A stretch of 64,000 bases of DNA from a virus (IMGVR_UViG_3300033153_011579); one strand, 5' to 3'. Shown: positions 47,946 through 63,802, counted from the first letter of the stretch. Numbers and translations: made by a program. The notes: generated from the sequence alone by a model not told the origin.

Positions 47946-48112
47946 GAAAAAAGAAACTGTCGGCCGCGCAGAAGATGAAGCTCGCCATGCTCAACAAGGT
48001 GTTCGACATGGCGGACGCGTTCGTCAAGGGCGCGGGAGCTCCGCGCAAGAAGGCCACTAGTGGCCACCTCGCCGGCGGCGTGGCCCCAGCCCCGTGCGGG
48101 AAGTGCGACTGA
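47939..48112 (+). CDS. Small basic protein (57 aa)
   Basis: MVRKKKLSAAQKMKLAMLNKVFDMADAFVKGAGAPRKKATSGHLAGGVAPAPCGKCD*. Confidence 0.45.
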   Translation: MVRKKKLSAAQKMKLAMLNKVFDMADAFVKGAGAPRKKATSGHLAGGVAPAPCGKCD

Positions 48113-49047
48113 TGGAAGAAACGCCACAATTCCTCGACTGGAACAAGCCGATCCCGGTGGGGGTCTGGCGCGTGGCGATGTTCGTGTTCAACGACCGGGT
48201 GATGCAGGGCTATGGCGACGAGTATGTCGCCAACTACATCACGTACTGGGGGGCGAGGGTCGGTCTCGACGTCTCGAAAAACCATATCGTCAAGGGCGCG
48301 TACAAGGTTCAACTCGGCGCGGACCCAGCAACCCCGTGGTTCGTGTACGTGAGGAACACCGTGAAGGGCCTCACGTCGGTGGAAGTCTTCAAGACGACGA
48401 AGATGCTGGTGTGGTTCTTCGAGCAAGCCACCGAGGGCTGGATGGCCAACTACCTCGAGACGGCCCAGGGGCATCTCGGTGCGGGCATCAGGCAAGCCAA
48501 CCCACCGCAGTGGGCGACCTCCGATTCGTTTCTGCTCGCCGAGCGCTGGTACGGCGTGGCCACCATCTGGAAAGACGTCGCGCCCAACCCGAACTTGATA
48601 GAGGACAAGCTCCAAAAAATGGGGCTCGACATCTGGAGCGGTCCGGGGGGCGTCGTCTACAAGGACGACAATCCACGGGTCATGATCCTGTCGCTCTACA
48701 CGGGCGATAAGCCCCGGCGGGTGGGGGACATCCAAAAGGCGATTGGTGCCAAGGCTCTCGTCGTCGACCTCAACCATTTTGAAAAGAACTACACGAAGGA
48801 CAAGTCGGACAAGATCTACGAGGCGTCCGGGGCGATGCTCGAGACGATTGGCGATATGGCGGTTGGGATCTCCGAAGGTCTCGAGAACGCCACCGACCTC
48901 GTACCCACGGTGTTCGACATCCTCGGCTGGATCGCGAAGTGGGGACCGTTCATCGCGGTCGGCGCGGTCGCGCTCTACTTCGGCCCTCGGGTGCTGACGG
49001 CAGCCAAGAAGAGCCGAGGCGAGTGGAAGAAGGCGAGGGCGGCATGA
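48112..49047 (+). CDS. Hypothetical protein with C-terminal TM + basic tail (311 aa)
   Basis: TGATG coupling; ends WGPFIAVGAVALYFGPRVLTAAKKSRGEWKKARAA*. Confidence 0.6.
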   Translation: MEETPQFLDWNKPIPVGVWRVAMFVFNDRVMQGYGDEYVANYITYWGARVGLDVSKNHIVKGAYKVQLGADPATPWFVYVRNTVKGLTSVEVFKTTKMLVWFFEQATEGWMANYLETAQGHLGAGIRQANPPQWATSDSFLLAERWYGVATIWKDVAPNPNLIEDKLQKMGLDIWSGPGGVVYKDDNPRVMILSLYTGDKPRRVGDIQKAIGAKALVVDLNHFEKNYTKDKSDKIYEASGAMLETIGDMAVGISEGLENATDLVPTVFDILGWIAKWGPFIAVGAVALYFGPRVLTAAKKSRGEWKKARAA

Positions 49048-49364
49048 CGAGCAAGCAAAAGATCATCGCGGGAGTCGCCGCGGGAGCCGCCGCCGCCCTG
49101 ATCACCGGTCTCGTCATCTGGCGCTCCCGGAAGAGGCTCGCGCTCGCCGCTCTTAAATACGAAGTCGATCCTTTATATAAGGCCCCCGCCGGCCTCAAGA
49201 CGCTGAAGCTCAGGAGCGTGCCGAAAGCCGCGGTGGTGGCCGTTAGAAAAATACACGGCAAGTTCAAGCTGCACCAGGCGTTCAGGGACACCGACGCCAT
49301 GTACTTGGTAGAAATCCACGAGGGGTTCGACCCGCTCGTGTTTCGAGTGAGGAGAAAGACATGA
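49044..49364 (+). CDS. N-terminally anchored small protein (106 aa)
   Basis: MTSKQKIIAGVAAGAAAALITGLVIWRSRKR. Confidence 0.55.
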   Translation: MTSKQKIIAGVAAGAAAALITGLVIWRSRKRLALAALKYEVDPLYKAPAGLKTLKLRSVPKAAVVAVRKIHGKFKLHQAFRDTDAMYLVEIHEGFDPLVFRVRRKT

Positions 49365-50419
49365 GAGGCAATCCCTACGATTGGATCAACCAGACTCGCG
49401 AGCACAAGGTGTTCGGAACTCGGCACTACCCGCTGATCGCCGGGCTCGCTGGGAAGTCCAACGGCTACCCGGCGTTCGCCATGCAGGTCCAGAGCCTGCC
49501 TGGTCTGCAGCGCAACCAGTACATCCGCGAGTGGCGGCAGTGGTTCGGGCGGCACGGCAAGAGCTGGGAGAAGATGGGCTGCCTCAAGGAAAACCGTCTC
49601 GGCCAGTACACCGACCGCTACAGGTGGACCGAGTGGAAGCCGGGCCTCGGTGCCTTCGGGTCGTTCGATACGAGCGTCGGGATGGGCTGGACCGCGATGG
49701 GGAACCCCGGCGCGAACTTCATCCCCAAGACGAACGTCATCCCGATCCCGGGGTACCCCGGCTGGGTACGCCAGATCGGCATGCTGAAGTACGACAAGGT
49801 CGGCGACGCGTGGCCCTGGTGTCTCGTGTACGCCAAGACCGACGGCTCGCAGTACGTCTGGTACTACAAGTACTCGGCGTCTCAGCCTCCGTTCCCCGGA
49901 GTCCCGCAGCCGACCGGCGGTGGCGACGACATCGGCACCGCGATCCCGAGCTCGACGAAGGCCGCGGTCACCGCGCTCCAGAAGGCGCTCAACCTCGCCG
50001 ACGCCAGGGACTCGCACAACAGGAAGCTGAACGAGGACGGCAACATCGGGCCCGACACGTGCTACGCGGCGTACCAGTTCAAGTCGGAGATGGGGCTCGG
50101 TACCGGAGCTGGGCTGCCCGCGGAGTTCTGGCTCTACCTCGGCCTGCCCGAGTCGTACGTCAAGTACAAGAACATCTGCTCGGCCTACTCGAGTGGAACG
50201 GAACCGAAAAAAACGACCAAACAACCGGGGCCGCTACCGGAGGAAGAGACTCCCGACCCGACGGTCAAGGCGGGCGACGCACCGCTCTCGATCTCGAAGG
50301 CGGGCCTCGGTGGCAAGAAGATGCTCCTGCTCGGCGGGGCCCTCCTGTTCGGGGGGCTCGTCGTGCTCGGTCGTAAGAAGAAGAAGCGCGGAAAACGCTC
50401 CAAGAAGAGGAGAAAATAA
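49361..50419 (+). CDS. Peptidoglycan-binding-domain protein with C-terminal TM and poly-basic tail (352 aa)
   Basis: TKAAVTALQKALNL...LNEDGNIGPDTCYAAYQFKSEMGL (PG_binding_1-like); ends LLLGGALLFGGLVVLGRKKKKRGKRSKKRRK*. Confidence 0.6.
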   Translation: MRGNPYDWINQTREHKVFGTRHYPLIAGLAGKSNGYPAFAMQVQSLPGLQRNQYIREWRQWFGRHGKSWEKMGCLKENRLGQYTDRYRWTEWKPGLGAFGSFDTSVGMGWTAMGNPGANFIPKTNVIPIPGYPGWVRQIGMLKYDKVGDAWPWCLVYAKTDGSQYVWYYKYSASQPPFPGVPQPTGGGDDIGTAIPSSTKAAVTALQKALNLADARDSHNRKLNEDGNIGPDTCYAAYQFKSEMGLGTGAGLPAEFWLYLGLPESYVKYKNICSAYSSGTEPKKTTKQPGPLPEEETPDPTVKAGDAPLSISKAGLGGKKMLLLGGALLFGGLVVLGRKKKKRGKRSKKRRK

Positions 50420-50988
50420 TGCCGTCCAAGAAGAGCAAGAAGAAGCGCGGGAAGAAAAAAGGGAGTCCGCTCCCACTCGTGATCGCCGCGGCGGCCATCG
50501 GTCTCGCCCTCTTCTTCGTGAGCAAGAAGGGGTCCGCCGGAGTGCCCAAGGACATCCCCAAGGGGAAGGGTCCCGGGAAGGCACCTCCCGCAGGAGCGCC
50601 GGCCAGCGCGCGCCCAGCTCCCGAGCTCACCGCGGCTCCGGACCCCGTGCCGACGGGAGAAGCGATCGACGACGCGCCGGCACCGACCAGTTCCGGCGAC
50701 ACCGGGCCGAGCGACCCGCTGAAGGCGGCCGGCTGGAAATGGGGCTTCATGGGATCTGTCGACCCCGACGAGGCATGGTCCGTCGGCGAGGTCATCAGCC
50801 CTTCACAGCTGCCGTTTGGTGCGGACAACCTGATCCAGGTGAGCCCGCTCGACACGGTCGAGGTGGCCTACTACCTCGCGTCGCAGGAGATGCTGACGCC
50901 TGGCTACTACGTGGTCGGGCAGATCAACTCGGAGGGCTTCTCCTTCGAGCCGCCCTTCTGGGGCATCATCCACGTCTGGCAGGAGTAG
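50419..50988 (+). CDS. N-terminally anchored protein with poly-basic head (189 aa)
   Basis: MPSKKSKKKRGKKKGSPLPLVIAAAAIGLALFFVSKKG. Confidence 0.6.
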   Translation: MPSKKSKKKRGKKKGSPLPLVIAAAAIGLALFFVSKKGSAGVPKDIPKGKGPGKAPPAGAPASARPAPELTAAPDPVPTGEAIDDAPAPTSSGDTGPSDPLKAAGWKWGFMGSVDPDEAWSVGEVISPSQLPFGADNLIQVSPLDTVEVAYYLASQEMLTPGYYVVGQINSEGFSFEPPFWGIIHVWQE

Positions 50989-50994
50989 GGAAAG

Positions 50995-51648
50995 ATGCCG
51001 TCGCCGCACAGCTATTACAGCTACCTGAAGATCTACAACGGGTCTGTGGGAGAATCGCCGCGCAAGGGGGCTTTTTACATCCCCAAGCATGGCGAGGCAC
51101 TCACGAGGATCGCCAAGCAGGCGTACGGGTTCGTGACCAGTACGCTCGCCGGCGTCCAGATGATCAACAGATCAGCATGGAATCGCAATGCGGCGAAGCA
51201 GGGTGCGTTCAAGTATCGCGTGACGTCGACTTCTTGCAAGTCGAAGATGGCCAACCCGGACAACGCGCTCACTACCCAGGGCTACAACAAGGGGGCCTGG
51301 CTCGCGCTGTGCCCGCCTTACCCGCTGTTCTGGATCCCGGCGAAGGCGGGCCAGATGCCGGAAGACCTCGCGCCTCCGGACGCCCCCCCCGGTCCCCCCG
51401 GAGCGACCTTCAAGGCACCGCCGAAGTCGCGTGGTGGAAGAGTGACGACGAAGAAGAGAGCCGGGGTCAAGACCACCAGGCAATCGCCCGGTCCGGGGAC
51501 GCAGTCGCCCTACTACCAGGGCCAGGGGACGTCGGGCTCGAGGAAGACGGCTCTCGCCGGCGTCGGGTCGCCGTGGATGCTGCTCGCCCTCGCGTTGCTC
51601 GCAGCCGGAGGATACGTATGGTACAGGCGGCGGAACAAGAAGAAGTAG
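50995..51648 (+). CDS. LysM-like protein with C-terminal TM + basic tail (217 aa)
   Basis: FYIPKHGEALTRIAKQAYG (weak LysM-like); ends PWMLLALALLAAGGYVWYRRRNKKK*. Confidence 0.5.
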   Translation: MPSPHSYYSYLKIYNGSVGESPRKGAFYIPKHGEALTRIAKQAYGFVTSTLAGVQMINRSAWNRNAAKQGAFKYRVTSTSCKSKMANPDNALTTQGYNKGAWLALCPPYPLFWIPAKAGQMPEDLAPPDAPPGPPGATFKAPPKSRGGRVTTKKRAGVKTTRQSPGPGTQSPYYQGQGTSGSRKTALAGVGSPWMLLALALLAAGGYVWYRRRNKKK

Positions 51649-51753
51649 AGACCAAGCGGTGCTCGATCTTCAAACCCTTCTCTGACCCTGTTTTTTCAAA
51701 GACAGTAACAGTCGTCCTTTGCCCTCGATGCGGGGCGACACCAGAGGTGATGC

Positions 51754-53571
51754 ATGGGTAACGAAAAGGGGCAGGAGCCCAAAACCCCTTCGAAGAGGAA
51801 GATGAACGACCGGAGGGTGACGCAGGCCCAGGTCGGCGTCGAGCAGCCGACCGACCGCGACGAGGGTTGGGACGTCTCGAAATTCCGGCAGATCATCTTT
51901 TCGATGCACCCGGTCGACCCGGACATCGACGACGTGGGTGCCGTCGGCTGGATCGCGTACGTCAAGGTCTGGCGCTTCAAGCTCGCCAACCGCTGGGGTA
52001 CCGGCAGCTCGGGAGGACAGTGGTACGCCGAGGACGAGCTCATCATCTCGATGGACGGCGATGTCGCGAACGGCGGCCCGATGGAGTACCAGCTGCCGAC
52101 GTGGAACGCCGAGAAGATGTTCTTCCAAGTGGTGCTCTCCGAGGGCGGTCCCGATACGTGGCAAGCCGCGCAGACCATCTCCGGGCTCGTCCCGCAGTCG
52201 TGCGAGTGCGAAGCGGACGTCGGCAGTATCGGTGGCGGCGGTGGGTCCGGTGGAATCGTCGTCTCGAACCTGTTCGATCTGATGGCCCACAACGACTACA
52301 CGTACAGCTCGCTTCGTGGCGATTTCGTCGCCACCAGGATTGCCGCGAACTCCATCCTGGTCAGCGGGCTCGACTTCGCGGTCGAAGAGCGGCAGATCCT
52401 GGCGATCGGCCTCAAGCGCTCGGGGACAACGTCCAGAACGCGCATGTGGTATCGCGACGACACCCTGCGTGTCGACTACACGCCAGGAACCTCGCTCATC
52501 GTGCACGCTGGCTTCACCAGCGACGCCCTGGACGAGGTGATCGTCTTCCTCGAGGGACCGTCCAAGGTGGACGACCCCACGAACCGAGCTCGACGCAACA
52601 AGACCGTCAACCCCGACCCGAAGCATGTCGCGACCGACGGGATTTTTCTCGACATCACGAAAGCCGAGCAGGCCGACGACGATTATTTCCCGTTCATGAT
52701 GAACCAGGACGGCTACCACTGGCTGTCGACGATGATCACCCTGACCGAGGACACCGTCGTGACGCTCGAGGCGACAAACGACCTCGCAGCGGACGGTGCC
52801 GAGGAATGGTACGACGTCACCGAGGAGGTGCTCGGCGTCGCCTCGGTCACCACGGCGAACGACGACCAGGCCTTCCCACCGCAGTGCTGGGTCGGCTGGC
52901 GACGGATGCGCTGGGTGGTCGGTGAGACCGGCTCTGGCGGTACCTGCAAGCTCTACATGCTGAGATCGGCCTATGGCAACCACTGGGTGCCCGTCGCCCG
53001 TGAGGGCCTCCCAGCGCTCCATGGCGGCCTCCCGGTGATGGGCGAAGCTCGAGCTGTCCAGGCCCCGGCCATCGCCGCGCTGTCCGCTGGGAAGTTCGTC
53101 ACGAACCTCTTCAAGGAGCTCGTCGGAGCAGCCTTCGACTGGGCCGTCGGAGCAGACCGCGGAGAAGAGGTCGACCCCGTCGACACGCGGGACTACACGA
53201 ACGTCATGGCCGAAGTCACCGGCCAAGGGGATGGTGATTTTTACTACTACCTCGACATGGCCCACTTCACAAAAGTGGGCATCCAGATCGAGAACGTCGA
53301 TGGAATAGCCGGCGACAACACCTACACGATCCATGGCTCGGAGCAGGACGACGGTACTGCACCGAACGCCGTTATCTACCAGGACATCACGCAGTTCGGG
53401 TGTGACAACATGAGAGCAGCCAACGCCGCGAACTACACGGCGGACGTCCTGTTGCAACTGAACGCCGCCGGGCTCTCGTACAAGTGGATCATGGTTCATG
53501 TCGAGCGCGCCAATGATGGCGCAAACACCGACGGCGAGTGGACCATCCTCGCCCGTCCGCTCTACCACTAG
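51754..53571 (+). CDS. Large multi-module beta-rich structural protein (605 aa; fibre/spike candidate)
   Basis: GGGGGSGG linker; repeated beta-sandwich-like modules ending ...EWTILARPLYH. Confidence 0.6.
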   Translation: MGNEKGQEPKTPSKRKMNDRRVTQAQVGVEQPTDRDEGWDVSKFRQIIFSMHPVDPDIDDVGAVGWIAYVKVWRFKLANRWGTGSSGGQWYAEDELIISMDGDVANGGPMEYQLPTWNAEKMFFQVVLSEGGPDTWQAAQTISGLVPQSCECEADVGSIGGGGGSGGIVVSNLFDLMAHNDYTYSSLRGDFVATRIAANSILVSGLDFAVEERQILAIGLKRSGTTSRTRMWYRDDTLRVDYTPGTSLIVHAGFTSDALDEVIVFLEGPSKVDDPTNRARRNKTVNPDPKHVATDGIFLDITKAEQADDDYFPFMMNQDGYHWLSTMITLTEDTVVTLEATNDLAADGAEEWYDVTEEVLGVASVTTANDDQAFPPQCWVGWRRMRWVVGETGSGGTCKLYMLRSAYGNHWVPVAREGLPALHGGLPVMGEARAVQAPAIAALSAGKFVTNLFKELVGAAFDWAVGADRGEEVDPVDTRDYTNVMAEVTGQGDGDFYYYLDMAHFTKVGIQIENVDGIAGDNTYTIHGSEQDDGTAPNAVIYQDITQFGCDNMRAANAANYTADVLLQLNAAGLSYKWIMVHVERANDGANTDGEWTILARPLYH

Positions 53572-53582
53572 GAGATTTTCAC

Positions 53583-53858
53583 GTGGGAATAGACATCAAA
53601 GCAGAACTCAGCAAGCTGGCGCTCGCCAACCTGGTCGATATTCCGCAATCTTCCGGAAAACCCCCAGGGGTGCCGGACATCACCAAAGCCAAGGCGCTCG
53701 CCGTTCTCAACAAGCTCCGCGAGATCGCCAAGCACAACGGCTACCGTGGGATCGCCAAGGCCGAAAAAATCCCCGAAAAATGGGTCAGGAAGCTCGACCT
53801 GCTGCGCAAGGAAGTCATCGCCGAGAAGCAACCCAAAGAGATCGAGGATCTCGAATAG
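53583..53858 (+). CDS. Hypothetical protein (91 aa, GTG start)
   Basis: GGAG 8 nt upstream; VGIDIKAELSKLALANLVDIP... Confidence 0.45.
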   Translation: MGIDIKAELSKLALANLVDIPQSSGKPPGVPDITKAKALAVLNKLREIAKHNGYRGIAKAEKIPEKWVRKLDLLRKEVIAEKQPKEIEDLE

Positions 53859-54467
53859 ATGCCCGCGTACTTCCACATCATCGACCCTAACGGCCACATC
53901 GTACGGATCGATGCGTCGACCCACGCCCAAACCACGATCGAGTACGAGCACCACGAAATCCATGGCTCCAGCTCGTTCACCTGCTGGTACGAGCAAGAGG
54001 TCTCGGACGATGGCGACCAATCGATCATCGCCTTCAAGACTCCCGCTGGAGCCAAGTGGGGCCACCTCACGTTTGCCGCCTCAGCCTCGCAGCCGGCGGA
54101 GGCCTGGATCCTCGAAGCCCCCGACGTCGTCGACAACACAGGAGCGCCGCTCGCAATCTGGAACAGAAACCGGGCCATCATCCTACCCAGCATAATGATC
54201 GACACCTCCCAGAACCCGGACGTCGTCGACCAGGCCACCTTCTTCACCGAGGTGACGATGGGTAACGTCACGGCTGGCGACGAGATCGACCACCAGCACC
54301 TCGAAGCGGGTCGGGGACCCCGTGCGATCGGCGGAGTATCCCGAGGCTCTCAGGAGTGGATACTCAAGCCCGAGGTCCACTATGCATTCATCGTCGAGTC
54401 CCTGAACGACGACACCAACGTCCACAACCTCCAGGTCAACTGGTACGAGCATACGGATAGAAACTGA
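53859..54467 (+). CDS. Beta-sandwich-like structural protein (202 aa)
   Basis: TIEYEHHEIHGSSSFTCWY...NLQVNWYEHTDRN; TAGATG junction. Confidence 0.55.
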   Translation: MPAYFHIIDPNGHIVRIDASTHAQTTIEYEHHEIHGSSSFTCWYEQEVSDDGDQSIIAFKTPAGAKWGHLTFAASASQPAEAWILEAPDVVDNTGAPLAIWNRNRAIILPSIMIDTSQNPDVVDQATFFTEVTMGNVTAGDEIDHQHLEAGRGPRAIGGVSRGSQEWILKPEVHYAFIVESLNDDTNVHNLQVNWYEHTDRN

Positions 54468-55105
54468 TGAGCCGCCTTCTCCCACACGACGTTACCGCCG
54501 AAGACAGAATGCGCCGCTGTTTTTTTGGTACGCGGTTCCGTCGGCCGGGAGATGAAGTCGAGAAACAGGGTGTGATCAGCGGTGCGCCTGTTATCAATCG
54601 AGGTGCGACGTTCGATGGCGTGAACGACTACATCACCTACGGGTTGTGGGGGCAGTTCACCGATAAGGACCCCGTCTCGTTTCACTGCTTGTTCTACCCC
54701 AATATAGTCCCATCCGGCGCAATGACTGAGTTTCCGTTTTTTGATACGCCCGATGCTTCGTTGAACTACGCTTGCAGGTTGACAACGACTGGCACATTCC
54801 AGTTTCGTGTCGGCAACGTATCACTCATCAACATAGCTGTCGGGGTGTACTCCGCGCTGTGGAATAATGGCGGCCGAAACTTGGTGACACTGTCCTCAAC
54901 TAGCGGGGCGAGTGACATCATGTTCAACGGAACCGTGCTCGCTGCGGCTGTTGATACAGCTTGGACCCCGACGGTTGTCACTTCATTGGCCATTGGTCGG
55001 AGATCGGGTGCGCGATTCAACGGACGTATGGAGTCTCTCCACCTCTTCAACAGTCTCCTCAGCGAAGAAGACCACCAGGCGATCTGGGCTGGGGGAGGTG
55101 CCTGA
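54467..55105 (+). CDS. LamG / concanavalin-A-like lectin domain protein 1
   Basis: GATFDGVNDYITYG...; ATGA coupling. Confidence 0.6.
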   Translation: MSRLLPHDVTAEDRMRRCFFGTRFRRPGDEVEKQGVISGAPVINRGATFDGVNDYITYGLWGQFTDKDPVSFHCLFYPNIVPSGAMTEFPFFDTPDASLNYACRLTTTGTFQFRVGNVSLINIAVGVYSALWNNGGRNLVTLSSTSGASDIMFNGTVLAAAVDTAWTPTVVTSLAIGRRSGARFNGRMESLHLFNSLLSEEDHQAIWAGGGA

Positions 55106-55794
55106 TGGGCCTCTATAACTGGCGCAACAAGCTCCTCCTGGACCTGCCGATGTTGATGCGGGACCACGACCCCGGCAACACCCTGTCGGTCAACAGAGGG
55201 CGTGCGGGAGCGGCCCTCGATGCAACATGGACCGCTGGAGTCACTGCACCGACGAAGCTCGGATACCGGAGGGGGTACTCGTTCGATGGTGCCGACATTA
55301 TGTTGGTTGCGGATGATGCGTCAATCCGATTCGGTACTGGTGATTTCACTGTATTATCAACTTTTGGCACTACGCAGAGTGCGAATCCTGCCAGGACTAT
55401 CGTAGCGAAAGGCACTGTCGGCGTTGATGAGTGGTTGTTTTATCGCTTTGCCGCTGGAGGTATTCAAAGTATTAGATTTTACGGTGACGGTGGTGCACTC
55501 AACGTAACAGCTGTTTGGACTGGGCGGCATCAGGGCGTCAACACAGGCGTGTTTGTGCGTAGCGGTGATGACGGGTTTCTCTACATCGGAGGGCAGCAAG
55601 TAGCGACACAAGCAGGCATCGCAGCGGTTGATCTGAGCACGACAAAAGATGCTTCAATTGGATCTGCTAATGAGGGTGGTGAACGTTACTGGGTCGACGA
55701 CATCTACCACGTCGGCATGGCCAACTTCGCGCTGAGCCCCCATCAGGTCGCCCAGTACCACAGCACGATGATGCGGAGGCTCCATGCGCTTTGA
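55105..55794 (+). CDS. LamG / ConA-like domain protein 2
   Basis: MGLYNWRNK...YSFDGADIMLVADDASIRFGTGDFTVLSTF; TGATG coupling. Confidence 0.6.
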   Translation: MGLYNWRNKLLLDLPMLMRDHDPGNTLSVNRGRAGAALDATWTAGVTAPTKLGYRRGYSFDGADIMLVADDASIRFGTGDFTVLSTFGTTQSANPARTIVAKGTVGVDEWLFYRFAAGGIQSIRFYGDGGALNVTAVWTGRHQGVNTGVFVRSGDDGFLYIGGQQVATQAGIAAVDLSTTKDASIGSANEGGERYWVDDIYHVGMANFALSPHQVAQYHSTMMRRLHAL

Positions 55795-55831
55795 CTTGCA
55801 AAGTAGTAGCGACATGAGGAGCTACCGGTCA

Positions 55832-55846
55832 GTCCCCGCAGGGGAC
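55832..55846 (+). other. Short GC hairpin between LamG genes
   Basis: GTCCCC-GCA-GGGGAC. Confidence 0.25.
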
Positions 55847-55875
55847 AAGACTATCGGAACACCCGAGGTGTTACG

Positions 55876-56532
55876 ATGAGCTTCCTCCAGCAGTCGATCC
55901 GGGACCAGTCACTCGTCGAGTGGGTCGACCTGCGTCGTTGGAACGCCAACTTCAACGACCTCTCCGGTCAAGGGGCCGTCGGGACGCCCTCCGACGTCTG
56001 GTACGGTGGTGGTGGAGTGCAGTTCGCCAACGACGACGGCTACATCAGCGTGCCTGACGTCGCCGCACACCGAAACGACGCCCTGTCGATCGTAGTCGTC
56101 GGTGAGTTCGACAGGCTCGAGCGTCCCGCCGCCAACCCAGGATTCCTGCTCACCAGGATGGACGGCGGTGGAAACATCGAGTGGCAGTTCGGGATCGACG
56201 ACACTCCGCAACTGTTCTTCGTCGATACCAACGCGTCGGCGACAGTCACAAGAGCAGTCGACTACCGCGGCATGCGCTCGCTTGGGCTGACCACCACGAA
56301 TGGCGGTACGCCGATTGGTTACGGTCAAGGGCTCTCGCTCGGTAATTTCTCCGGTGCGGCAGACGTCGATGCAAACGTCGATATGCTGCTGTACCTCGGG
56401 AACAACGACGACTTCGACCGGTCGATGCTCAACCCCATGCACGCCGCCCTGCTCTTCAATCGACCTCTCGACGAAGAAGAGATGGCCGTCCTCCACGGCG
56501 AGCTCATGGCGCTCCCCGGAGGTGAGCACTGA
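55876..56532 (+). CDS. LamG / ConA-like domain protein 3
   Basis: GGGVQFANDDGYISVPDVAAHRNDALSIVVVGEFDR. Confidence 0.6.
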   Translation: MSFLQQSIRDQSLVEWVDLRRWNANFNDLSGQGAVGTPSDVWYGGGGVQFANDDGYISVPDVAAHRNDALSIVVVGEFDRLERPAANPGFLLTRMDGGGNIEWQFGIDDTPQLFFVDTNASATVTRAVDYRGMRSLGLTTTNGGTPIGYGQGLSLGNFSGAADVDANVDMLLYLGNNDDFDRSMLNPMHAALLFNRPLDEEEMAVLHGELMALPGGEH

Positions 56533-57872
56533 TGCCGCGTGCATACGCCACACGACGAGTTCTCCTCGTGCCCGACCTCGCCGACCCCGCCCTCTACGGA
56601 GCGTGGACCATGGTGCCACGAGGTGGCCTCCTTGTTGACCACACTCCCCAAGGGAACGACGGCGTCCCAGGCGCGTCTTCCGGAGTCGAGCACACAATCC
56701 TCGGCCCGATGCGGAGGTATTGGCCGAATAGCGGAGCTGGCGGGTCCGTGATCGGTGCTCCTGGAGACTTCGCTCTGGGCGATCTGACATGCTGCTTTTG
56801 GACGCGGATGGATATTGGAGCTGCGCCTGATGCCTATGGGTTTGGCTACCGATTGAACAACAACGATCAGTGGTGGCTTCGCGTTCGTGCTGGGTTGGTC
56901 TCTATTTTCGACGACATCGATAATGCTGGAGCAAATCTGTACCAGACACTGGTTCAGGCGGGCAGGCTGGTTCACGTTGTTGGTGTGATGGATAATCTTG
57001 AAAATCTTCTGTACCTTGACAACGTCTTGGTGGGCTCGGGCACCTTTGCCTCTGACAACTGGGCGAGTTTTGCTGGGCAGTTGTATCACGGTGCGAGGAC
57101 CACTGGCGCTGATCCAGTTCAAGGCATCGTCTCACCCGCTCTCGTCCACAACGCAGCCAAGGACCAGGCCTGGGTCACCAAGGACTACATGAAGGGCGCT
57201 TCGGCCGTCCAGTTCAAAACCGACTGGGGCGTCAAACAGAGCGTCGGGAACGAAGTCGCCAACGCTCGCGTCGGCCACAATAGCTCGCCCTTCGAGATCG
57301 TCAGCGGTACCTGGCAGATGACCATGGACACCATCGACGGTGTCGACGTCAAGGTGATGGAGTGTATCGCTGCTGGAGTGGTCGGGATGCCGACCTCGCT
57401 GTTCGAGGCGACCCCAACCGAGGCGGCATTTGGGACGTGGGAGTGGTGGTTGACCAAGGTCGACGGCAGTTCACCTTATGTGATGTTCGCTGGATCTGAC
57501 CTTGCTGCTATAGCCGGTGGGACACAGAGCGGATACGACATTATTATCAACTCTGCCGAGCGTGTCTTTTTTCAAGAGTGTGCTGCTGGTGCTCCGGTAA
57601 GCTCTTGGTGGACTGACATCGATTATGTGACACCCGGATCATGGAACAAGTTCAGAGTCACTAGGAGATATGACGGCCAGTTCACCGTATACATGGATGA
57701 CGTTTTAATCAACGCGACTGGCGGTGTGGAGTCTAACCCCTTCACCGATCTGACCACCACGACAGCCAACTACGTCGTGCTCGAATTCGACGCCGGAGAT
57801 AAATTTGGGTATGCCGACCGTCGCGGCTCACACAGTTTCGTAAAATACCTCGGGGTCATCCCCCCAGGGTAG
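56532..57872 (+). CDS. Tandem LamG/ConA-like (second half DUF1080-like) protein 4 (446 aa)
   Basis: GDFALGDLTCCFWTRMD...; FEIVSGTWQMTMDTIDG...WNKFRVTRRYDGQFTVYMDDVLI. Confidence 0.6.
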   Translation: MPRAYATRRVLLVPDLADPALYGAWTMVPRGGLLVDHTPQGNDGVPGASSGVEHTILGPMRRYWPNSGAGGSVIGAPGDFALGDLTCCFWTRMDIGAAPDAYGFGYRLNNNDQWWLRVRAGLVSIFDDIDNAGANLYQTLVQAGRLVHVVGVMDNLENLLYLDNVLVGSGTFASDNWASFAGQLYHGARTTGADPVQGIVSPALVHNAAKDQAWVTKDYMKGASAVQFKTDWGVKQSVGNEVANARVGHNSSPFEIVSGTWQMTMDTIDGVDVKVMECIAAGVVGMPTSLFEATPTEAAFGTWEWWLTKVDGSSPYVMFAGSDLAAIAGGTQSGYDIIINSAERVFFQECAAGAPVSSWWTDIDYVTPGSWNKFRVTRRYDGQFTVYMDDVLINATGGVESNPFTDLTTTTANYVVLEFDAGDKFGYADRRGSHSFVKYLGVIPPG

Positions 57873-57884
57873 GAGGATAGAAGG

Positions 57885-58640
57885 ATGGGCAACCAGTATT
57901 ACGGACGATCGTGGAACGAGCTGATGGAGCTCTGCACGGCCGAGTATCGGTTCTACCGAAACTCGCAGCGGAACTTCCGCCCGGCGAACATCGGTGCGGG
58001 AACCGGTGTCGCCGACATGGGCGAGTACCTGATCGACGCCGACAACGTGCCCAAGCAGTCGGTGTGTCTCGGGATGCCGGCCTTCTGTGTCGACTACCCC
58101 ACGGCCCACTTCAACTTCCCCCAGAACTTCGACGATACGATGGGGGCCGAGGACGCCTTTACCCTGGAGTACCTCGGTGTCGTCCAGGACCGCCTGATAC
58201 CAGATAGGTACATGGCCCTGGTCGGCGAAGATGGCGCGGCGACTCCCTACGTCGGGATCCGCGATGACAACCTGGTCGAGATGGATTTCGGCACGCAGCA
58301 GGTCTCGAACGGTCTCTGCGAGTGGTGGAAAGACGGTCTGATCCACTTCGTCGTCTCTCGGGCGGCTGGTGCAGCGCCCGAAACGGAAATTTACATCAAC
58401 GGAGTGCGGATCGACTTCGTCAGTCGTCTGGCTGGCGCGGGGGCCTTCACCGACGCCGCCGGCCAGATCTTCAACCACGCCGACAACAACGGAGACCAGC
58501 ACCCGTGGTGGGGTCACCACTTCATGCTCCGGCAATATTCGGCGGCGTTGAGGAAGTCCGAGGTCATCGAGATGTTCCAGGACGCGCAGCGCCTGATCCC
58601 GCATCACCTGATGCACATCCCGGTCGACTCGGCGGAGTAA
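57885..58640 (+). CDS. LamG/ConA-like domain protein 5 (251 aa)
   Basis: ...WWKDGLIHFVVSRAAGAAPETEIYINGVRIDF...; AGGAGGA SD. Confidence 0.5.
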   Translation: MGNQYYGRSWNELMELCTAEYRFYRNSQRNFRPANIGAGTGVADMGEYLIDADNVPKQSVCLGMPAFCVDYPTAHFNFPQNFDDTMGAEDAFTLEYLGVVQDRLIPDRYMALVGEDGAATPYVGIRDDNLVEMDFGTQQVSNGLCEWWKDGLIHFVVSRAAGAAPETEIYINGVRIDFVSRLAGAGAFTDAAGQIFNHADNNGDQHPWWGHHFMLRQYSAALRKSEVIEMFQDAQRLIPHHLMHIPVDSAE

Positions 58641-58663
58641 GAACGAAGCGGTAGGAGGATAAC

Positions 58664-59158
58664 GTGGGAGACAGCGACACACTGATCGAGATCGCCAAGA
58701 GCCTGGGAGAGGTCAATGGCTCGATGGCCGGCGTCCATCGCGAGATGAAAGGTGTTCGTGGAGAGGTTCGAGAGCTGCGGGACGAGGTCAAGGAGATGCC
58801 CGACCAGTGGAGGGCGGAAGCTGCGGACATCGTCGAAAACTGCAGAGAGCGACGGGACGAGCTCGCCGAGGCGAAAGAGCGTGGGGAGTCCACCGCGGTC
58901 ACAAACCTCGCCAAGGAACAGGCAAGATCTCGGAGGCCGTCCACGCCTCCCCGGAAGCGCGACAGTTGGATCGACAGCGTCGTCAAGACGGCGATGAAGC
59001 CGGTCATCACTACGCTGGTGGTGGTCTGCATGGCCGCCGGCGCGGGGTTCGCCGTGTCCCACTGTAGCAACGGCAAAACGGTCGAGCCGGCTGATCTGAA
59101 GGCGCTCGAGGATAATTTGCTCGAGCGGTTCAAGAAGGTGAACGGAGGCGAGCGATGA
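58664..59158 (+). CDS. Coiled-coil membrane protein (164 aa, GTG start)
   Basis: AGGAGG SD; TM KPVITTLVVVCMAAGAGFAV. Confidence 0.55.
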   Translation: MGDSDTLIEIAKSLGEVNGSMAGVHREMKGVRGEVRELRDEVKEMPDQWRAEAADIVENCRERRDELAEAKERGESTAVTNLAKEQARSRRPSTPPRKRDSWIDSVVKTAMKPVITTLVVVCMAAGAGFAVSHCSNGKTVEPADLKALEDNLLERFKKVNGGER

Positions 59159-59682
59159 GTAACCTCGACCCAGCTCTGTGCAAGTGGGAGCTGGTCAAGA
59201 AGTGGGACTATCAAGACGTCACCATGGAGCGGGCCTTTGCAGAAGGCGGCGGCCTGGTGGTCGGTGGCAAGCTCCGGGGCCACGCTGCTTCGGGATTCGT
59301 CCTGAGCGACCTCGGCGTCCCCTCTGAGCTGATCGACGAGATGGCCGATAAGTTCGGGAAGACGTGGGAGGTCCTCCTGTTCGTGACGTCTCCCCATCCG
59401 GTGGGTGCCGGGAACTTCACGCTTGCCGAAGAGGTGTATGCCCTGTGGGCCTACAAGGCGACCTGGCCGCCGCCGATGCACTCGTCGCTGGACTACGTCC
59501 CCGACGCGGTGCTGAGGAACGCGCGGCTGTTCAAGCTGCAGTGCCCGACGGAGGCCGCGCCCTGGCTCCAGAAGAAGAAAGAGCATTCGATGAAGCCCCG
59601 GAGCTCTATCTGGGTTCCCGTAATTGGCGGTTTTTGCCTGGTGGGAACCTGGTTGCTCGCGCGAAAAAGGAAGAAGCGGTGA
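59155..59682 (+). CDS. Protein with C-terminal TM + basic tail (175 aa)
   Basis: ends IWVPVIGGFCLVGTWLLARKRKKR*. Confidence 0.55.
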   Translation: MSNLDPALCKWELVKKWDYQDVTMERAFAEGGGLVVGGKLRGHAASGFVLSDLGVPSELIDEMADKFGKTWEVLLFVTSPHPVGAGNFTLAEEVYALWAYKATWPPPMHSSLDYVPDAVLRNARLFKLQCPTEAAPWLQKKKEHSMKPRSSIWVPVIGGFCLVGTWLLARKRKKR

Positions 59683-59704
59683 GCCACCGCTGGCAATATA
59701 GGAG

Positions 59705-59718
59705 GCCCACTGGTGGGT
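59705..59718. repeat. Imperfect copy of the GCCCACTAGTGGGC palindrome
   Basis: GCCCACTGGTGGGT, contains GTG start 59713 and follows GGAG. Confidence 0.6.
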
Positions 59719-61014
59719 GACTGGGACAAAAAGTGCCGCGATCCTAAAACTGCAAAACTGGCTAGCCAGTGTGCGCGGCGTGGGTACCTGTCCGATAACA
59801 TAGGCGGCCTAGGCCGCTTCGGGACGGTGAAGACGTACGCCGCGCCAGAGCGAGGGCCTCTGGAGCGCGTGAAGTCCGCTGAGAACATGGGGCCGACCCG
59901 GTCTCAGCTGTTCACATGGACGACGAAGGTCCACGCGCCGAGCTGGAGCTTGCCCGCGGTTGGCACCTGTCCGGGGGCGTGTGGAGTCGACAAGAAGTCC
60001 ATCAGAGACACGAAGAAAATACCGAAAAAATGCCTCGGGTGCTACGCGTACAACGCGGGGAAGTACGGGACCGAAGAGGTGAAGAACGCTCAGCACCGGC
60101 GGTGGGCGTGGTTCGATTCTCAGCCCAAGAAGGAAGTCGTCAAGGGGTTGGTCGAGGCGATCAAGGTCTCCGGGCGAGACGATTGCACGACCAGCCGCGC
60201 GAAGAAGTCCGACCCGTGGACGTGCAAGAAGGACGAGGGCGGCCGGAAGGTATGCGCTCGCGAGGATCCGGTGACGTGCAAGACGACGGTGAGCGGGCTG
60301 CCGACACACTTCCGACTATTCGACTCGGGAGATTTCCACGACGCGAGAGCGGTATGGATCTGGCGGAGCGTCGCGAGAAAACTCCCGGACATCAAGTTCT
60401 GGGCTCCGACGACCGCGTGGATCGACCACAAGTACGAGCATCCCGAGGACAAGCAGAAGGAGGTCGACCTCCACCTCGAGCTCGGCCGGCTCGCGAAGAT
60501 GAAGAACGTTACTCTGCGGCCGAGCGCGTTGAGTCTCGACCGCGCAGCTCCCGACGTCGAGATCGGCGGCCGGAAGGTCGCGGGGAGCGGGATCGTCTCG
60601 TGGGAGGCGATGAAGACGACGGCCAAATGTCCGTGGGAGGACAAGCCGACGAAAAACAAGTGCAAGCGCACGTACCGGCACCTGCCGCAGGCGAAGACGC
60701 TGTCGGGCAAACCGGTCATTTACGACCCGGACGACGATTCGACCAGGCCGGAGAAGGTAAAGGTCAACGGGAAGGTCCACCGGCTCTGTCCGGGTGACTG
60801 TGCGAAGTGCATGGCGTGCTGGAACAAGCGAGAGCGGGTGGTGTACGTGCAGCACGGTCCTGACGCGAAGGCGAAGGAAAGGATGCTCGAGCGGGGCGAG
60901 GACATGCTCGAGTACATGGAATTGCTGTTCCCGCAATACGCGGACCTCGGGCCGGACAGTGCGGACCACCCGGCGCAACGGTTTTTGGCGGCACAGCGAA
61001 AGAAGGCCCACTAG
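59713..61014 (+). CDS. Cys-rich protein (433 aa) with CxxxC...CxxCYA N-terminal cluster
   Basis: SLPAVGTCPGACGVDKK...KKCLGCYAYNAGKYG, reminiscent of the Gp37/Gp68-type TGCxxGCxYCYA cluster at 23469..24215. Confidence 0.5.
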   Translation: MGDWDKKCRDPKTAKLASQCARRGYLSDNIGGLGRFGTVKTYAAPERGPLERVKSAENMGPTRSQLFTWTTKVHAPSWSLPAVGTCPGACGVDKKSIRDTKKIPKKCLGCYAYNAGKYGTEEVKNAQHRRWAWFDSQPKKEVVKGLVEAIKVSGRDDCTTSRAKKSDPWTCKKDEGGRKVCAREDPVTCKTTVSGLPTHFRLFDSGDFHDARAVWIWRSVARKLPDIKFWAPTTAWIDHKYEHPEDKQKEVDLHLELGRLAKMKNVTLRPSALSLDRAAPDVEIGGRKVAGSGIVSWEAMKTTAKCPWEDKPTKNKCKRTYRHLPQAKTLSGKPVIYDPDDDSTRPEKVKVNGKVHRLCPGDCAKCMACWNKRERVVYVQHGPDAKAKERMLERGEDMLEYMELLFPQYADLGPDSADHPAQRFLAAQRKKAH

Positions 61015-61045: not shown

Positions 61046-61303
61046 AAACGAAGACCATGCAAAGGAGTAAGCGTCCGGCACGAGTTCAGCGGGCCGGTCG
61101 TCAGCAAAGGATATTCCACGGCGGAGGTAAGGTTCAAGAATGTAGGAAGGGACTTCCGAAACGAATTCGAGATCAAGTGCAAATATACCGACCCCAAGTC
61201 AAAAGTGAAAAAGTTAGTTGAGCGCATCAAGGTAGATGCGCAGCAAGAGGCAACCGACCGCGCCTGTGCACTGGTCAAGAGTCGTTGTAAGCGGAAGAAA
61301 TAA
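61040..61303 (+). CDS. Small basic protein (87 aa, GTG start)
   Basis: ORF track; VAKRRPCKGVSVRHEF... Confidence 0.5.
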   Translation: MAKRRPCKGVSVRHEFSGPVVSKGYSTAEVRFKNVGRDFRNEFEIKCKYTDPKSKVKKLVERIKVDAQQEATDRACALVKSRCKRKK

Positions 61304-61304
61304 G

Positions 61305-61946
61305 ATGCCCAAGAGTCCAGGACCAGCGACGTTGTTCATGCTGCTGACGGGTGGAGCTTTGCTCCTGGCCGGCGCGGTCCGCGCATTCTCCGGTGAGCAA
61401 AAAAGCCCACTAGTGGGCCCGAGGTATGTGGTGGCGGTGGGCGACTCTCTGACGGCGAACGGGTCGTATTGTCGGACGCTCGAGCGGATGCTTCCTGTCG
61501 GGTCGAGGGTGGACTGCGTCGGGTACGTTGGCGAGGGGGCGCAGGCGATCTCCACGAAGGTAGGGAAGGCGATCCTCGCCGGAGCAGACGACGTGATCGT
61601 GTTGGCCGGCGTGAACGACCTGGCGTCGGGTCGCGGGGTGCAGGGGACGGTCTCCGGGCTCGACAAGATTTACCAGAAGGGGAGGGCATCGGGCGCGCGG
61701 GTGATCGCAGTCCACCTGACTCCGTGGGCGGGGCATTCGAAAGGGTCGCAGCTACAGACCGAGACGTGGAAGGTGAACGCGTGGATGGCGAAATACCCAT
61801 CGGTCGAGATGGTGGTCGAGACGCAGGAGCTCGGTGATGCCGGCGTCCTCTACCCGGAGTACGGAGCTGGCGACGGGTTACATCTGAGCGAGGCGGGCCA
61901 GGACAAGCTGGCGGAGATCATCTTTAGCCAGGTGTACGGAGGATAG
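61305..61946 (+). CDS. SGNH/GDSL hydrolase with N-terminal signal-anchor
   Basis: VVAVGDSLTANG (block I), VIVLAGVNDL (block III), GDGLHLSEAG (DxxH block V). Confidence 0.75.
   Translation: MPKSPGPATLFMLLTGGALLLAGAVRAFSGEQKSPLVGPRYVVAVGDSLTANGSYCRTLERMLPVGSRVDCVGYVGEGAQAISTKVGKAILAGADDVIVLAGVNDLASGRGVQGTVSGLDKIYQKGRASGARVIAVHLTPWAGHSKGSQLQTETWKVNAWMAKYPSVEMVVETQELGDAGVLYPEYGAGDGLHLSEAGQDKLAEIIFSQVYGG
61404..61417. repeat. Second perfect copy of the palindrome GCCCACTAGTGGGC (inside the SGNH gene)
   Basis: Identical 14-mer 398 bp after the first copy. Confidence 0.8.
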
Positions 61947-61948
61947 GG

Positions 61949-62260
61949 ATGAAGAAGGGCACGAAGAAGGTTCTCATCGGCGGCGCGATCCTCGGCGGCC
62001 TCGTGCTGGCGGCGTTGTTCATCCGAGATCGGTTGCTCACGGCCGGGCCGGGGAAGTCATTTAAGGAAGAGCTCAAGCTGGCCTGGATCAAGGGATACAA
62101 CAAGGGTTGGAAGGAATACGGCAAGGGGGTGGAAAGCTACCCTCCTTACGATTACGGCGAGGATGATTTGCACACCGCGTGGTCGCTTGGTTACAGTCTC
62201 GGTCGTATGGACAAGGGAACAGATAAGGATCACAGTTATAAGAAAAACCCGTATGCGTGA
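61949..62260 (+). CDS. N-terminally anchored protein, MKKGTKK family (103 aa)
   Basis: MKKGTKKVLIGGAILGGLVLAALFIRDR. Confidence 0.55.
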   Translation: MKKGTKKVLIGGAILGGLVLAALFIRDRLLTAGPGKSFKEELKLAWIKGYNKGWKEYGKGVESYPPYDYGEDDLHTAWSLGYSLGRMDKGTDKDHSYKKNPYA

Positions 62261-62330
62261 CAGAAAAAGCTCTTAAATTACAGGGGCAGCACTTTGCTGC
62301 TCTTGACAAGACAAAGGATCGTCTAATAAG

Positions 62331-62347
62331 CTCGCCCTCAGGGCGAG
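62331..62347 (+). other. Hairpin in the 62261-62380 gap
   Basis: CTCGCCC-TCA-GGGCGAG followed by TTCTAG; TTGACA at 62303 lies upstream. Confidence 0.3.
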
Positions 62348-62380
62348 TTCTAGAGTGGGATAGCTCACAAGGAGGAGACG

Positions 62381-62725
62381 GTGTTCAACCCAGGTGTTTA
62401 CGGAAGTTCTTCGGTACCCGGTCTCGGCGTTCTCGGGATGTCTGGGTTCGACTACGAAAAGTTGATCGGCGAGGGCAAGAAGGCGCTCGACAACATCAAC
62501 AAGGGGAACGTGAAGATTCCGACCGAGAAAGAGCTCCAGGAGATGGTGTCGAAGCCGACGAAAGACCTCGCCGAGGAGATCGGCGGCCAGCTGGCGAAGG
62601 AGCATGGCACGGCGACGGGAAAAGCCGCCGCCGGCGAGCTCTGGACCAAGGCGAAACCGTTTGCGATCGGGGCACTTGTTCTCGTCGGCGGCATCCTGGT
62701 CGTGATGGCCGCGAGGAAAAAGTAG
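62381..62725 (+). CDS. Protein with C-terminal TM + basic tail (114 aa, GTG start)
   Basis: GGAGGAG SD; ends KPFAIGALVLVGGILVVMAARKK*. Confidence 0.55.
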   Translation: MFNPGVYGSSSVPGLGVLGMSGFDYEKLIGEGKKALDNINKGNVKIPTEKELQEMVSKPTKDLAEEIGGQLAKEHGTATGKAAAGELWTKAKPFAIGALVLVGGILVVMAARKK

Positions 62726-62726
62726 C

Positions 62727-62999
62727 ATGGCCCGCAAGCCCAAATACGGTCTACGGAAATCGCTCGAGTCGAAGCGCAGCACGTACGACCACGAGTTTCG
62801 AGCTCGGCAGTCGTGCGAGAATCCATGCCGCACGTATTTCAACAAGCTCGAGGCGGCGGTCGACCGCGGGAACACCAAAGTGGCCGAGTTTCACGCGAGC
62901 CGGTACTGGAGCTGCGTGTGGAGTTGCATGGATACGAGAGTCCCCAAGAAACTGAAGCGAACGCGTATCGCCGCGAAGATCAAGAAGCGGAGGAGATAG
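62727..62999 (+). CDS. Basic Cys-containing protein (90 aa)
   Basis: ORF track; ends KKLKRTRIAAKIKKRRR*. Confidence 0.5.
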   Translation: MARKPKYGLRKSLESKRSTYDHEFRARQSCENPCRTYFNKLEAAVDRGNTKVAEFHASRYWSCVWSCMDTRVPKKLKRTRIAAKIKKRRR

Positions 63000-63446
63000 A
63001 TGGGCTACACGCACTACTGGGAGATCAAACAAAATCTCACAGCCTCGGAGTGGATGAAGATCCAGCAGAAGGCGCGCGCGTTGATCAAAAAAGCGCGAGC
63101 CAAGGGGATCTGTGTGGCCGGTGGCGCGGGGGAAGGTTCTCCTGAGGTGAGCTCCAAGGAGATCTGGCTCAACGGCTGCGCGAAGAAGAAGTGGAAGCAC
63201 AAGTACGCGTACCCGGGAGCTGACCAGGCCCACGAGACGTTCAGCTTCAAGCCGAAAAAGCGGGAGTTCGATTTCTGCAAGACGGCGGAAAAACCCTACG
63301 ATGCGCTCGTGGTGTCCATCCTGAACGAGGCGAGGAAGATCGCCCCAAAGAAGATCCGAGTCAGCTCCGACGGTGGCGACGAGGCTATCAAAACCGTGCT
63401 CAAGGGACTCGGACTTCTACCGGCCAAGAAGCGGAGGAGAAGGTAA
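63000..63446 (+). CDS. Hypothetical basic protein (148 aa)
   Basis: ORF track; ends LLPAKKRRRR*. Confidence 0.55.
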   Translation: MGYTHYWEIKQNLTASEWMKIQQKARALIKKARAKGICVAGGAGEGSPEVSSKEIWLNGCAKKKWKHKYAYPGADQAHETFSFKPKKREFDFCKTAEKPYDALVVSILNEARKIAPKKIRVSSDGGDEAIKTVLKGLGLLPAKKRRRR

Positions 63447-63802
63447 TGAAGAAGGGTACCAAGAAGACACTCGGAGCCGGCCTCCTGCTCACCTCGGTCA
63501 TCCTGGGCGTCGTCCTCTACAAGAGGTCGAAGCAGCCGAGCACGTCTGGTCTCGCGGCGCTCTCGCCGAACCAGGCGAAGCAAGCGCGGCTCGTCCGCCA
63601 GTTCGCAAAGCGGATGGGACGCGACCTGACGCCGAAGCCGGTGGTCGTCGAGAAAGTTCTGCCAAACGGCATGACGCAGTCGTTCGCCAGAAAATACGTC
63701 GGCTGGTTGAACGACCGGAGCGCGCAACGCGGGACGAAGTATACCCACAAACACATCAGCCCGAGCAGCCTGGCGCTGCCCGTCGACCAGGCAGTGAGGT
63801 AA
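63446..63802 (+). CDS. N-terminally anchored protein, MKKGTKK family (118 aa)
   Basis: MKKGTKKTLGAGLLLTSVILGVVLYKRSKQ; TAATG coupling. Confidence 0.55.
   Translation: MKKGTKKTLGAGLLLTSVILGVVLYKRSKQPSTSGLAALSPNQAKQARLVRQFAKRMGRDLTPKPVVVEKVLPNGMTQSFARKYVGWLNDRSAQRGTKYTHKHISPSSLALPVDQAVR

Follow-up and report, generated by a model that had tools for sequence, protein, structure and literature searches.

Decoration proteins encoded beside the capsid gene often mediate adhesion to carbohydrates, and a gain in adsorption or retention through glycan binding has been proposed for Hoc, pb10, gp8.5 and Dec; in Hoc, the capsid-binding domain is C-terminal (PMC7602432). In SU10, a putative decoration gene, gp10, lies between the capsid and adaptor genes (PMC9509320), and Laminin-G3 lectin domains have been found on phage fibres and other virion components (PMC7824862). 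Here we analyze a locus in a 64,000-nucleotide stretch of viral DNA (IMGVR_UViG_3300033153_011579; referred to as the window, with positions counted from its first letter), in which five consecutive genes, A to E, had been given a preliminary description, made from the sequence alone, as a battery of LamG/ConA-like lectin genes. A to E are anciently diverged genes of the LamG/ConA type, with E the least certain among them; A to D belong to a fissioned copy of a widespread phage module, to which this lineage adds Z and E. We assign a probability of roughly 0.5 to the reading that this module encodes a complex of lectin-like adhesins on the virion surface, attached close to the head or neck.

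The genes form part of an operon of eight, spanning positions 51754-58640:

51754-53571, + strand: X-protein, 605 amino acids; its C-terminal X domain is encoded at about 53011-53568
53538-53858, + strand: Y, about 95-106 amino acids, probably helical, conserved in the module
53859-54467, + strand: Z, open reading frame of 202 amino acids, lineage-specific
54467-55105, + strand: A, 212 amino acids, a single LamG-like domain; equivalent to the N-terminal half of A+B where these are fused, as is usual
55105-55794, + strand: B, 229 amino acids, a single LamG-like domain; equivalent to the C-terminal half of A+B in the usual fused form
55876-56532, + strand: C, 218 amino acids, a single LamG-like domain; corresponds to the N-terminal domain of the usual C+D fusion
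56532-57872, + strand: D, 446 amino acids, two LamG/ConA-like domains, the N-terminal domain (D-N) at about 56532-57206 and the C-terminal domain (D-C) at about 57207-57869
57885-58640, + strand: E, 251 amino acids, probably a LamG-like domain with an N-terminal extension

All five open reading frames of the preliminary description were recovered, on the + strand and at the same coordinates, as were the 605- and 202-residue reading frames upstream of them; what had been missed is the start of the module, which begins further upstream with the X domain of the 605-residue protein and the 106-residue open reading frame (Y). Each of A to E has an ATG start and a GGAGG-type ribosome-binding site; in B, the ribosome-binding site GGGGGAGGTG precedes the ATG at 55105. 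The Z/A, A/B and C/D junctions are 1-nucleotide TGATG overlaps, while gaps of 81 and 12 nucleotides separate B from C and D from E, so that the earlier statement that the five genes are mostly joined by overlaps holds for two of the four internal junctions (A/B and C/D) and fails for the other two. No pair among A to E showed significant similarity in pairwise BLASTP; they are therefore not recent duplicates, and the judgement that they are too diverged to be recent copies was correct. The B/C gap, the sole sizeable gap within the operon, holds a perfect GC-rich hairpin, GTCCCC-GCA-GGGGAC, at 55832-55846 (+). This hairpin has no T-tract, was not called by a terminator scan and could be an RNA processing or stability element.

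A scan of IMG/VR with an X profile recovered 65 viral loci, 48 of them distinct. Linkage was counted in those distinct loci, 22 in all, whose sequence extends 5 kb or more beyond X on the downstream side, after annotation with local hidden Markov models (HMMs). LamG-type genes lie within 7 kb of X in all 22; D-C is present in 20, and 20 have exactly two LamG genes. In this two-gene form, one gene encodes a protein of about 430 residues consisting of A followed by B, and the other a protein of about 430-710 residues with C at its start and D-C at its end. The canonical module thus consists of an X-protein, zero to three small genes, Y, AB and CD, and given this form the window's five genes amount to A, B, C and D as separate genes, with E added. 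A scan of IMG/VR seeded with a D profile returned nothing; this was a false negative of its pattern step, as the X-seeded scan recovered many CD genes.

Related loci are numbered here with the prefix L. Among contigs encoding D homologues, A, B, C and D occur in the same order in L001, L003/4, L005 and L016. Orthologues of A are separate genes in L001, L003, L005 and L016, and are fused to B in L006, L017 and most IMG/VR loci; the A+B fusions comprise 452 residues in L006/7 and 582 in L017. C is fused to D in L006-L009 (640 and 653 residues), L015 (657 residues) and L017 (570 residues, with C joined to D-C), and in a 675-residue fusion in L014 the LamG domain N-terminal to D matches B, not C. 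The pairwise fusion of A with B and of C with D points to obligate partners of one assembly. In L003 (7543-8673) and L004 (1018-2148), a GIY-YIG/NUMOD homing endonuclease gene sits exactly between the A and B orthologues, at a point that lies within a single gene in most other phages; its insertion is therefore one possible route to gene fission.

Two further families, X and Y, travel with A to D. No proteins other than those of the module are shared between the window and L003, L005, L006, L008, L014 and L015, or within this group of loci, except for tail genes common to L014 and L015. The module is thus exchanged as a unit among otherwise unrelated phages. It also exceeds the neighbouring structural genes in conservation. 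When the window is compared with L001, identity is 26-36% for A, B, Y and Z, 47% for C, and 52-54% for D, E and the X-protein.

The X domain, the C-terminal ~180 residues of the X-protein, has counterparts in L003, L005, L006, L008, L014, L016 and L017; it is a standalone protein of 165-177 residues in the first four of these loci and the C-terminus of a larger protein in the other three. The N-terminal region of the window's X-protein is lineage-specific, with one internal X-like stretch at about residues 274-369. An exhaustive HMMER search with the 605-residue family as query yielded at least 745 clusters (50% identity representatives) at E<=1e-3, the majority of which align to the X domain alone. 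Of 94 proteins checked, 91 end in X, and the N-terminal regions that precede it vary greatly in length. No counterpart of X was found in Pfam, PHROG or the PDB (the last with shallow and deep profiles), and a Pfam and PHROG scan of 97 X-family proteins revealed other domains only here and there, Fn3-II_PB4 in two and GH16 in one. In tblastn searches of 50,697 GenBank phages, two X domains, an X-protein and D were all without a match, and a canonical CD protein gave weak LamG matches only.

Y, which may in fact start further downstream than the GTG at 53538, has orthologues in L001, L003, L005, L006, L008 and L016, and its HMM found a match downstream of X in 14 of the 22 IMG/VR loci. A PDB profile search with Y gave nothing significant or informative; the idea of a helix-turn-helix regulator, a motif resemblance without PDB support, was dropped. 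Z is represented in L001, L002 and one IMG/VR locus (L062), and its slot in L003 and L005 is filled by an unrelated protein of 194-195 residues. The sole database match of Z was weak (PHROG 5335, 0.0066), and a PDB profile search gave nothing significant. Orthologues of E are limited to L001, L002 and L016 plus five metagenomic proteins, and thus to the ~82-kb lineage of the window. None of the eight proteins (X-protein, Y, Z and A to E) has a hydrophobic segment, whether transmembrane or signal-like, and none matched PADLOC at E<=0.1; PHROGs, queried with the same proteins, likewise gave nothing beyond the weak match of Z.

The LamG/ConA-like fold previously claimed for the five proteins, with six domains, was borne out by Pfam, by hhalign and by a model of D; for E it was HMM and hhalign comparisons that agreed with it. 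When each reading frame was compared with Pfam Laminin_G_3 (PF13385, gathering cutoff 27.6 bits), B (5.9e-7, 30.2 bits) and residues 76-215 of D (5e-10, 40.2 bits) scored above the cutoff and A slightly below it (1e-5, 26.2 bits), and C, E and D-C gave no direct match. Two of the six domains, B and D-N, thus reach the cutoff directly, and the remainder are linked to them by profile-profile comparison. With hhalign profiles built as family alignments of orthologues from related contigs, C aligned to D-N (99.1%, E 7e-19), B to D-N (94.8%) and to C (93.6%), A to C (91.2%), and D-C to D-N (81.5%). The ancient divergence of the domains is likewise supported.

The second domain of D had been called DUF1080-like. 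Of 13 D-C orthologues, three matched Laminin_G_3 (best 1.3e-6) and one matched 3keto-disac_hyd (PF06439, DUF1080), at 0.0029; the window's own D-C gave nothing against PF06439 at E<=1, and a PDB profile search with D-C found nothing significant. That label is therefore right at the level of the shared ConA-like superfamily only.

An AlphaFold2 model of D, based on an alignment of 21 sequences, reached a mean predicted local distance difference test score (pLDDT) of 93.7 and a predicted template modelling score of 0.92. It is compact, lacks a shaft or coiled coil, and consists of two all-beta domains, so that for D the two-sheet jelly-roll beta sandwich of LamG/ConA-like domains can be seen in the model. 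The top Foldseek matches are Hc fragments of tetanus and botulinum toxins, and the best structural matches are non-catalytic binding domains, namely domain 4 of AbnA, the Hc-N domain of botulinum neurotoxin and CBM40. We also considered D as a double-jelly-roll capsid protein; this was rejected because its matches are lectin-type folds rather than viral capsid jelly rolls, and because L005 and L017 carry HK97-type capsid genes.

E is harder to place. It had no match in Pfam or PDB profile searches, only six homologues were found among 5.8 billion proteins, and its AlphaFold2 model, from a 6-sequence alignment, is of low confidence (pLDDT 36.9). The E profile nevertheless aligned end to end with a merged A+B+C+D-N profile in hhalign (85.8%, 201 columns), and an E HMM run against 1,183 proteins of related loci matched, besides its own orthologues, LamG module proteins only (best 1.2e-6). 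The count of six LamG-like domains in five proteins therefore stands, with E as a probable member.

A genome-collection scan returned only a giant multi-LamG protein, without the module, in L013 (68-14671; JAHWIR010000014.1, from a 'Candidatus Woesearchaeota' metagenome-assembled genome). This reading frame of at least 4,867 residues holds many tandem LamG domains, one of which is 40% identical to D-N over 126 residues.

In readable phage backbones, the module always lies in the head-gene block, between portal or major capsid genes and protease or adaptor/connector genes. The following gene orders illustrate this placement (bare numbers are protein lengths in amino acids; parentheses enclose module genes):

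L005: GpA terminase, Phage_portal_2, (87, X, Y, 194, A, B, C, D), Peptidase_S49, 146, Phage_cap_E, ..., tape measure
L014: terminase, 631, 91, 218, 404, 154, 121, (X-321), 90, 257, 103, 140, (675: LamG+D), four small genes, SU10_adaptor, 691, PTL_trimer
L015: (CD-657), four small genes, SU10_adaptor
L017: SU10_MCP, 105, 105, 249, 89, (X-320), 51, 114, 531, (AB-582), (CD-570), 298, 439, three connector-sized genes, 250, Phage_tube_2

The portal and capsid genes upstream of the module in L014 were assigned by position. Jackhmmer searches from reference head genes placed a capsid-like gene two to six genes upstream of X in 13 IMG/VR loci and adaptor-like or tube-like genes downstream of CD. An independent check of two capsid assignments by tblastn paired a 363-residue protein of L036 with the HHTV-2 major capsid protein (2e-11) and a 389-residue protein of L074 with P22-coat-like major head proteins (1e-11). 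In HHTV-2, whose capsid gene is related, only six small genes separate capsid and tail tube, and there is no module. The module is thus an add-on insertion, outside the minimal head-tail set.

One or two genes for proteins of about 105 residues directly follow the SU10-like capsid gene in L019, L032, L035/36, L067 and L017 (3275-3911), with two such genes in L017, L032 and L035/36; in L052/53, five genes for 81-85-residue proteins precede the X-protein gene instead. These small post-capsid genes could encode decoration or cement proteins.

Based on these results, we suggest how the module may work. With neither a signal peptide nor a membrane segment, the proteins are most likely synthesized in the cytoplasm and jointly assembled onto virions, and as the head-block position is kept whatever the tail type, their product would most likely be a head- or neck-proximal surface appendage. 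Within such a hetero-complex, the C-terminal X domain may serve as the anchor or docking domain, and the LamG domains would act as lectin-like adhesins for cell-surface or environmental glycans. Glycan binding could then raise the rate of productive encounters, adsorption or retention, functionally like Hoc, pb10 and the phi29 head fibre. A carbohydrate-binding, adhesin-type role on the virus particle, as had been proposed for the five proteins, is indeed plausible, the structural neighbours of D being lectin domains, carbohydrate-binding modules and phage spike or fibre proteins.

Several observations weigh against a head- or neck-borne adhesin complex. We infer the presence of the module proteins on virions from gene position and fold. 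The capsid, portal and terminase of the window were not recognized by Pfam, PHROGs, the PDB, tblastn or jackhmmer from the head genes of relatives, so the placement in a head block applies to the relatives in which it could be read. There, the module is flanked by membrane-anchored single-pass proteins with poly-basic tails. In L006/7, the module sits amid non-structural genes, namely a muramidase, a Tad2-like gene and helix-turn-helix regulators. Finally, a recognizable capsid gene was found upstream of X in just 13 of 41 IMG/VR loci, with a small reference set for recognition. Going beyond the adhesin reading itself, we tentatively propose, at somewhat less than even odds, that X-Y-AB-CD is a widespread, undescribed accessory system of uncultivated tailed phages, which builds LamG lectin appendages on the capsid or neck and passes as a whole between phages of different capsid lineages and tail types, and that X is a new, backbone-independent virion-docking domain.

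Other explanations must be weighed against the adhesin complex. The preliminary description saw in A to E a diversified battery of five independent, interchangeable lectin cassettes, a standing repertoire of specificities. The strong mutual divergence of the five proteins would suit such a repertoire, and so would the situation in L002, an ~82-kb sister genome in which A and B are replaced (7678-9303) by an unrelated, beta-rich 446-residue protein rich in Gly, Asn and Thr and a 90-residue open reading frame, while C, D and E are retained. (Pfam gave nothing significant for the 446-residue protein, and its interpretation as a tailspike-like beta-helix, an impression from sequence, was dropped.) However, the paralogues can each be traced by orthologues of their own through unrelated phages, in an unvarying order; the domains are fused into two polypeptides, again in the same order, in 20 of 22 IMG/VR loci; and no copy-number variation of single domains was seen. 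Repeats within 51000-59800 are short, chance-level direct and inverted ones, and no recombinase or reverse transcriptase domain was detected among the proteins scanned near the module. The region thus holds no phase-variation machinery, in agreement with the preliminary description, and a repertoire of interchangeable specificities, contradicted by synteny and fusions, is highly improbable; comparing the locus among relatives, a check that had been proposed for cassette turnover, revealed a fixed order with limited turnover, exemplified by L002. The replacement in L002, of a kind typical of host-range genes, would also suit a module that forms the primary receptor-binding apparatus, as tail fibres or spikes or as fibres attached to the adaptor or neck, with LamG domains as receptor-binding heads. 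A and B also diverge faster (36%) than D and E (54%) between the window and L001. A search of BFVD with D retrieved hundreds of phage multi-LamG proteins, many annotated as tail fibre or adhesin, and there are precedents for LamG tailspikes. In addition, L014, L015 and several IMG/VR loci have an adaptor gene after the module, and in SU10-type podophages the adaptor is where long fibres dock (PMC9509320). Set against this, the same head-proximal slot is used in phages with three different tail types, namely of the contractile or tape-measure type (L005), with a tail tube (L017, L032, L053) and with a podophage adaptor (L014, L074), and a tail-specific attachment should not transfer in this way. 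A tail-fibre gene is expected by the baseplate or distal tail genes, with an N-terminal anchor or shaft; no such arrangement was found in the readable backbones, where the module was never seen beside tape-measure or baseplate genes, and compact, two-domain D has neither shaft nor coiled coil. Moreover, podophage loci retain further fibre-sized genes past the adaptor, and the module is more conserved than its structural neighbours. We therefore regard a primary receptor-binding apparatus as unlikely, yet as the most serious competitor.

The module might also be non-structural, a portable accessory cassette encoding ConA-like enzymes of the glucanase or lyase type, or intracellular or envelope effectors acting, for example, in glycan remodelling or superinfection exclusion. 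ConA-like enzymes do exist, the one weak PF06439 match among the D-C orthologues and the GH16 domain of one X-family protein point in this direction, and so do the lysis, regulatory and anti-defence-like neighbours in L006/7, the membrane proteins around the window module, and the sulfotransferases, glycosyltransferases and GDSL esterase encoded by the lineage. On the other hand, the best structural matches of D are to non-catalytic domains, the invariant residues of D-C are mostly Gly, Tyr and Lys with no acid pair, there is no signal peptide for delivery to the envelope and no PADLOC match, and the stereotyped placement in a morphogenetic block recurs in dozens of phages. A non-structural cassette thus appears quite improbable to us, more so than a receptor-binding apparatus, and we favour the virion-surface adhesin complex.

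The window lies within an 82,351-bp metagenomic contig, with sister contigs of 81,271 and 82,527 bp, one of which was binned as a Planctomycetota metagenome-assembled genome. It resembles a phage: its small genes run in one direction over long stretches, matches to Pfam or PHROG are very few, and tRNAs are absent; the matches include a GP88-family protein, an SLT transglycosylase, a PurA-like protein and a weak integrase match. Genes recognized outside the module are:

17597-18598, - strand: response-regulator receiver protein
26259-27368, - strand: adenylosuccinate-synthetase-like protein, 369 amino acids (Pfam 1.1e-39, covering profile positions 1-274 of 416 only)
32840-33775, - strand: SPFH/Band 7 protein
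59713-61014, + strand: GP88-family protein (3.3e-15)
L011 3433-4107, just upstream of the window: sigma-70-type factor
L010 8172-9610, L001 18836-21091, L002 20570-21263 and window 61236-61946: putative glycan-modification genes

The best PDB matches of the 369-residue PurA-like protein are to cellular PurA (3e-24). Finding so short a PurA homologue in a phage invites the question whether it might have a PurZ-type (2-aminoadenine) function. Sulfotransferases, glycosyltransferases (GT11, GT2), a methyltransferase and a GDSL esterase are encoded downstream of the module in the same lineage, which suggests that the lineage encodes glycan modification alongside lectin-like proteins. At least ten small single-pass membrane proteins are encoded on both sides of the module (48094-51648, 58664-59682 and 61236-63802, all +), many with a terminal transmembrane helix next to a poly-Lys/Arg tail (for example ...LVVLGRKKKKRGKRSKKRRK); such a density is unusual for a structural region of a tailed phage.

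What looks like a gene battery in a single genome can thus be a fissioned two-gene unit. The LamG domains make up half of a conserved, mobile, multi-gene module, and its X and Y families, common in viral metagenomes, have no counterpart in Pfam, PHROGs, the PDB or the genomes of cultured phages. If the module encodes a head or neck decoration, it would stand beside Hoc-type adhesins as their lectin-based equivalent, with a docking domain functional on unrelated capsids, and would provide a handle on how environmental phages locate glycan-coated hosts or particles.

Among described systems, the 'LamG-like jellyroll' virion proteins of jumbo phages and cyanophages resemble the module in fold, in having several LamG domains per locus or protein, in their viral origin and in their presumed adhesion to carbohydrates. 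In contrast to these, the module is a fixed series of five domains (A, B, C, D-N, D-C) that is tied to X and Y and moves as a unit between backbones; the window splits this series into four genes and adds E. T4 Hoc, T5 pb10, phi29 gp8.5 and SU10 gp10 share with the module, as it is placed in relatives of the window, the character of a non-essential-looking add-on beside the major capsid gene, with beta-sandwich adhesion domains, and the arrangement of Hoc, with capsid binding at the C-terminus and adhesion domains at the N-terminus, recalls the placement of X, which is C-terminal in 91 of 94 proteins. However, those four are single proteins with Ig-like or coiled-coil structure and no sequence or established structural relation to the module, which comprises several genes with LamG folds and would bind capsids through X. 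The tailspike gp15 of the cyanopodophage Pan3 (PDB 9vyh_q), CBA120 TSP2 and gp23 of mycobacteriophage Douge are likewise small LamG-type units for host contact on virions; sequence identity to them is about 9-13%, and the module differs in being head-proximal and independent of tail type. The toxin Hc fragments resemble D as rigid two-domain binding units with a lectin-like jelly roll for glycan or glycolipid binding; the whole-chain template modelling score is only about 0.4, and no homology past the superfamily is implied. Their Hc-C domain is a beta-trefoil; the second domain of D, judging from the secondary structure of the model, is another jelly roll. Shufflons and the targets of diversity-generating retroelements differ from the module region, which is without long repeats and, among the proteins scanned nearby, without an invertase or reverse transcriptase. 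No description of the X-Y-AB-CD module or of the X and Y families was found in the literature or profile libraries searched. LamG lectin domains on phages are already known; what appears to be new is a conserved, mobile X-Y-AB-CD module beside the capsid gene, and with it the families X and Y.

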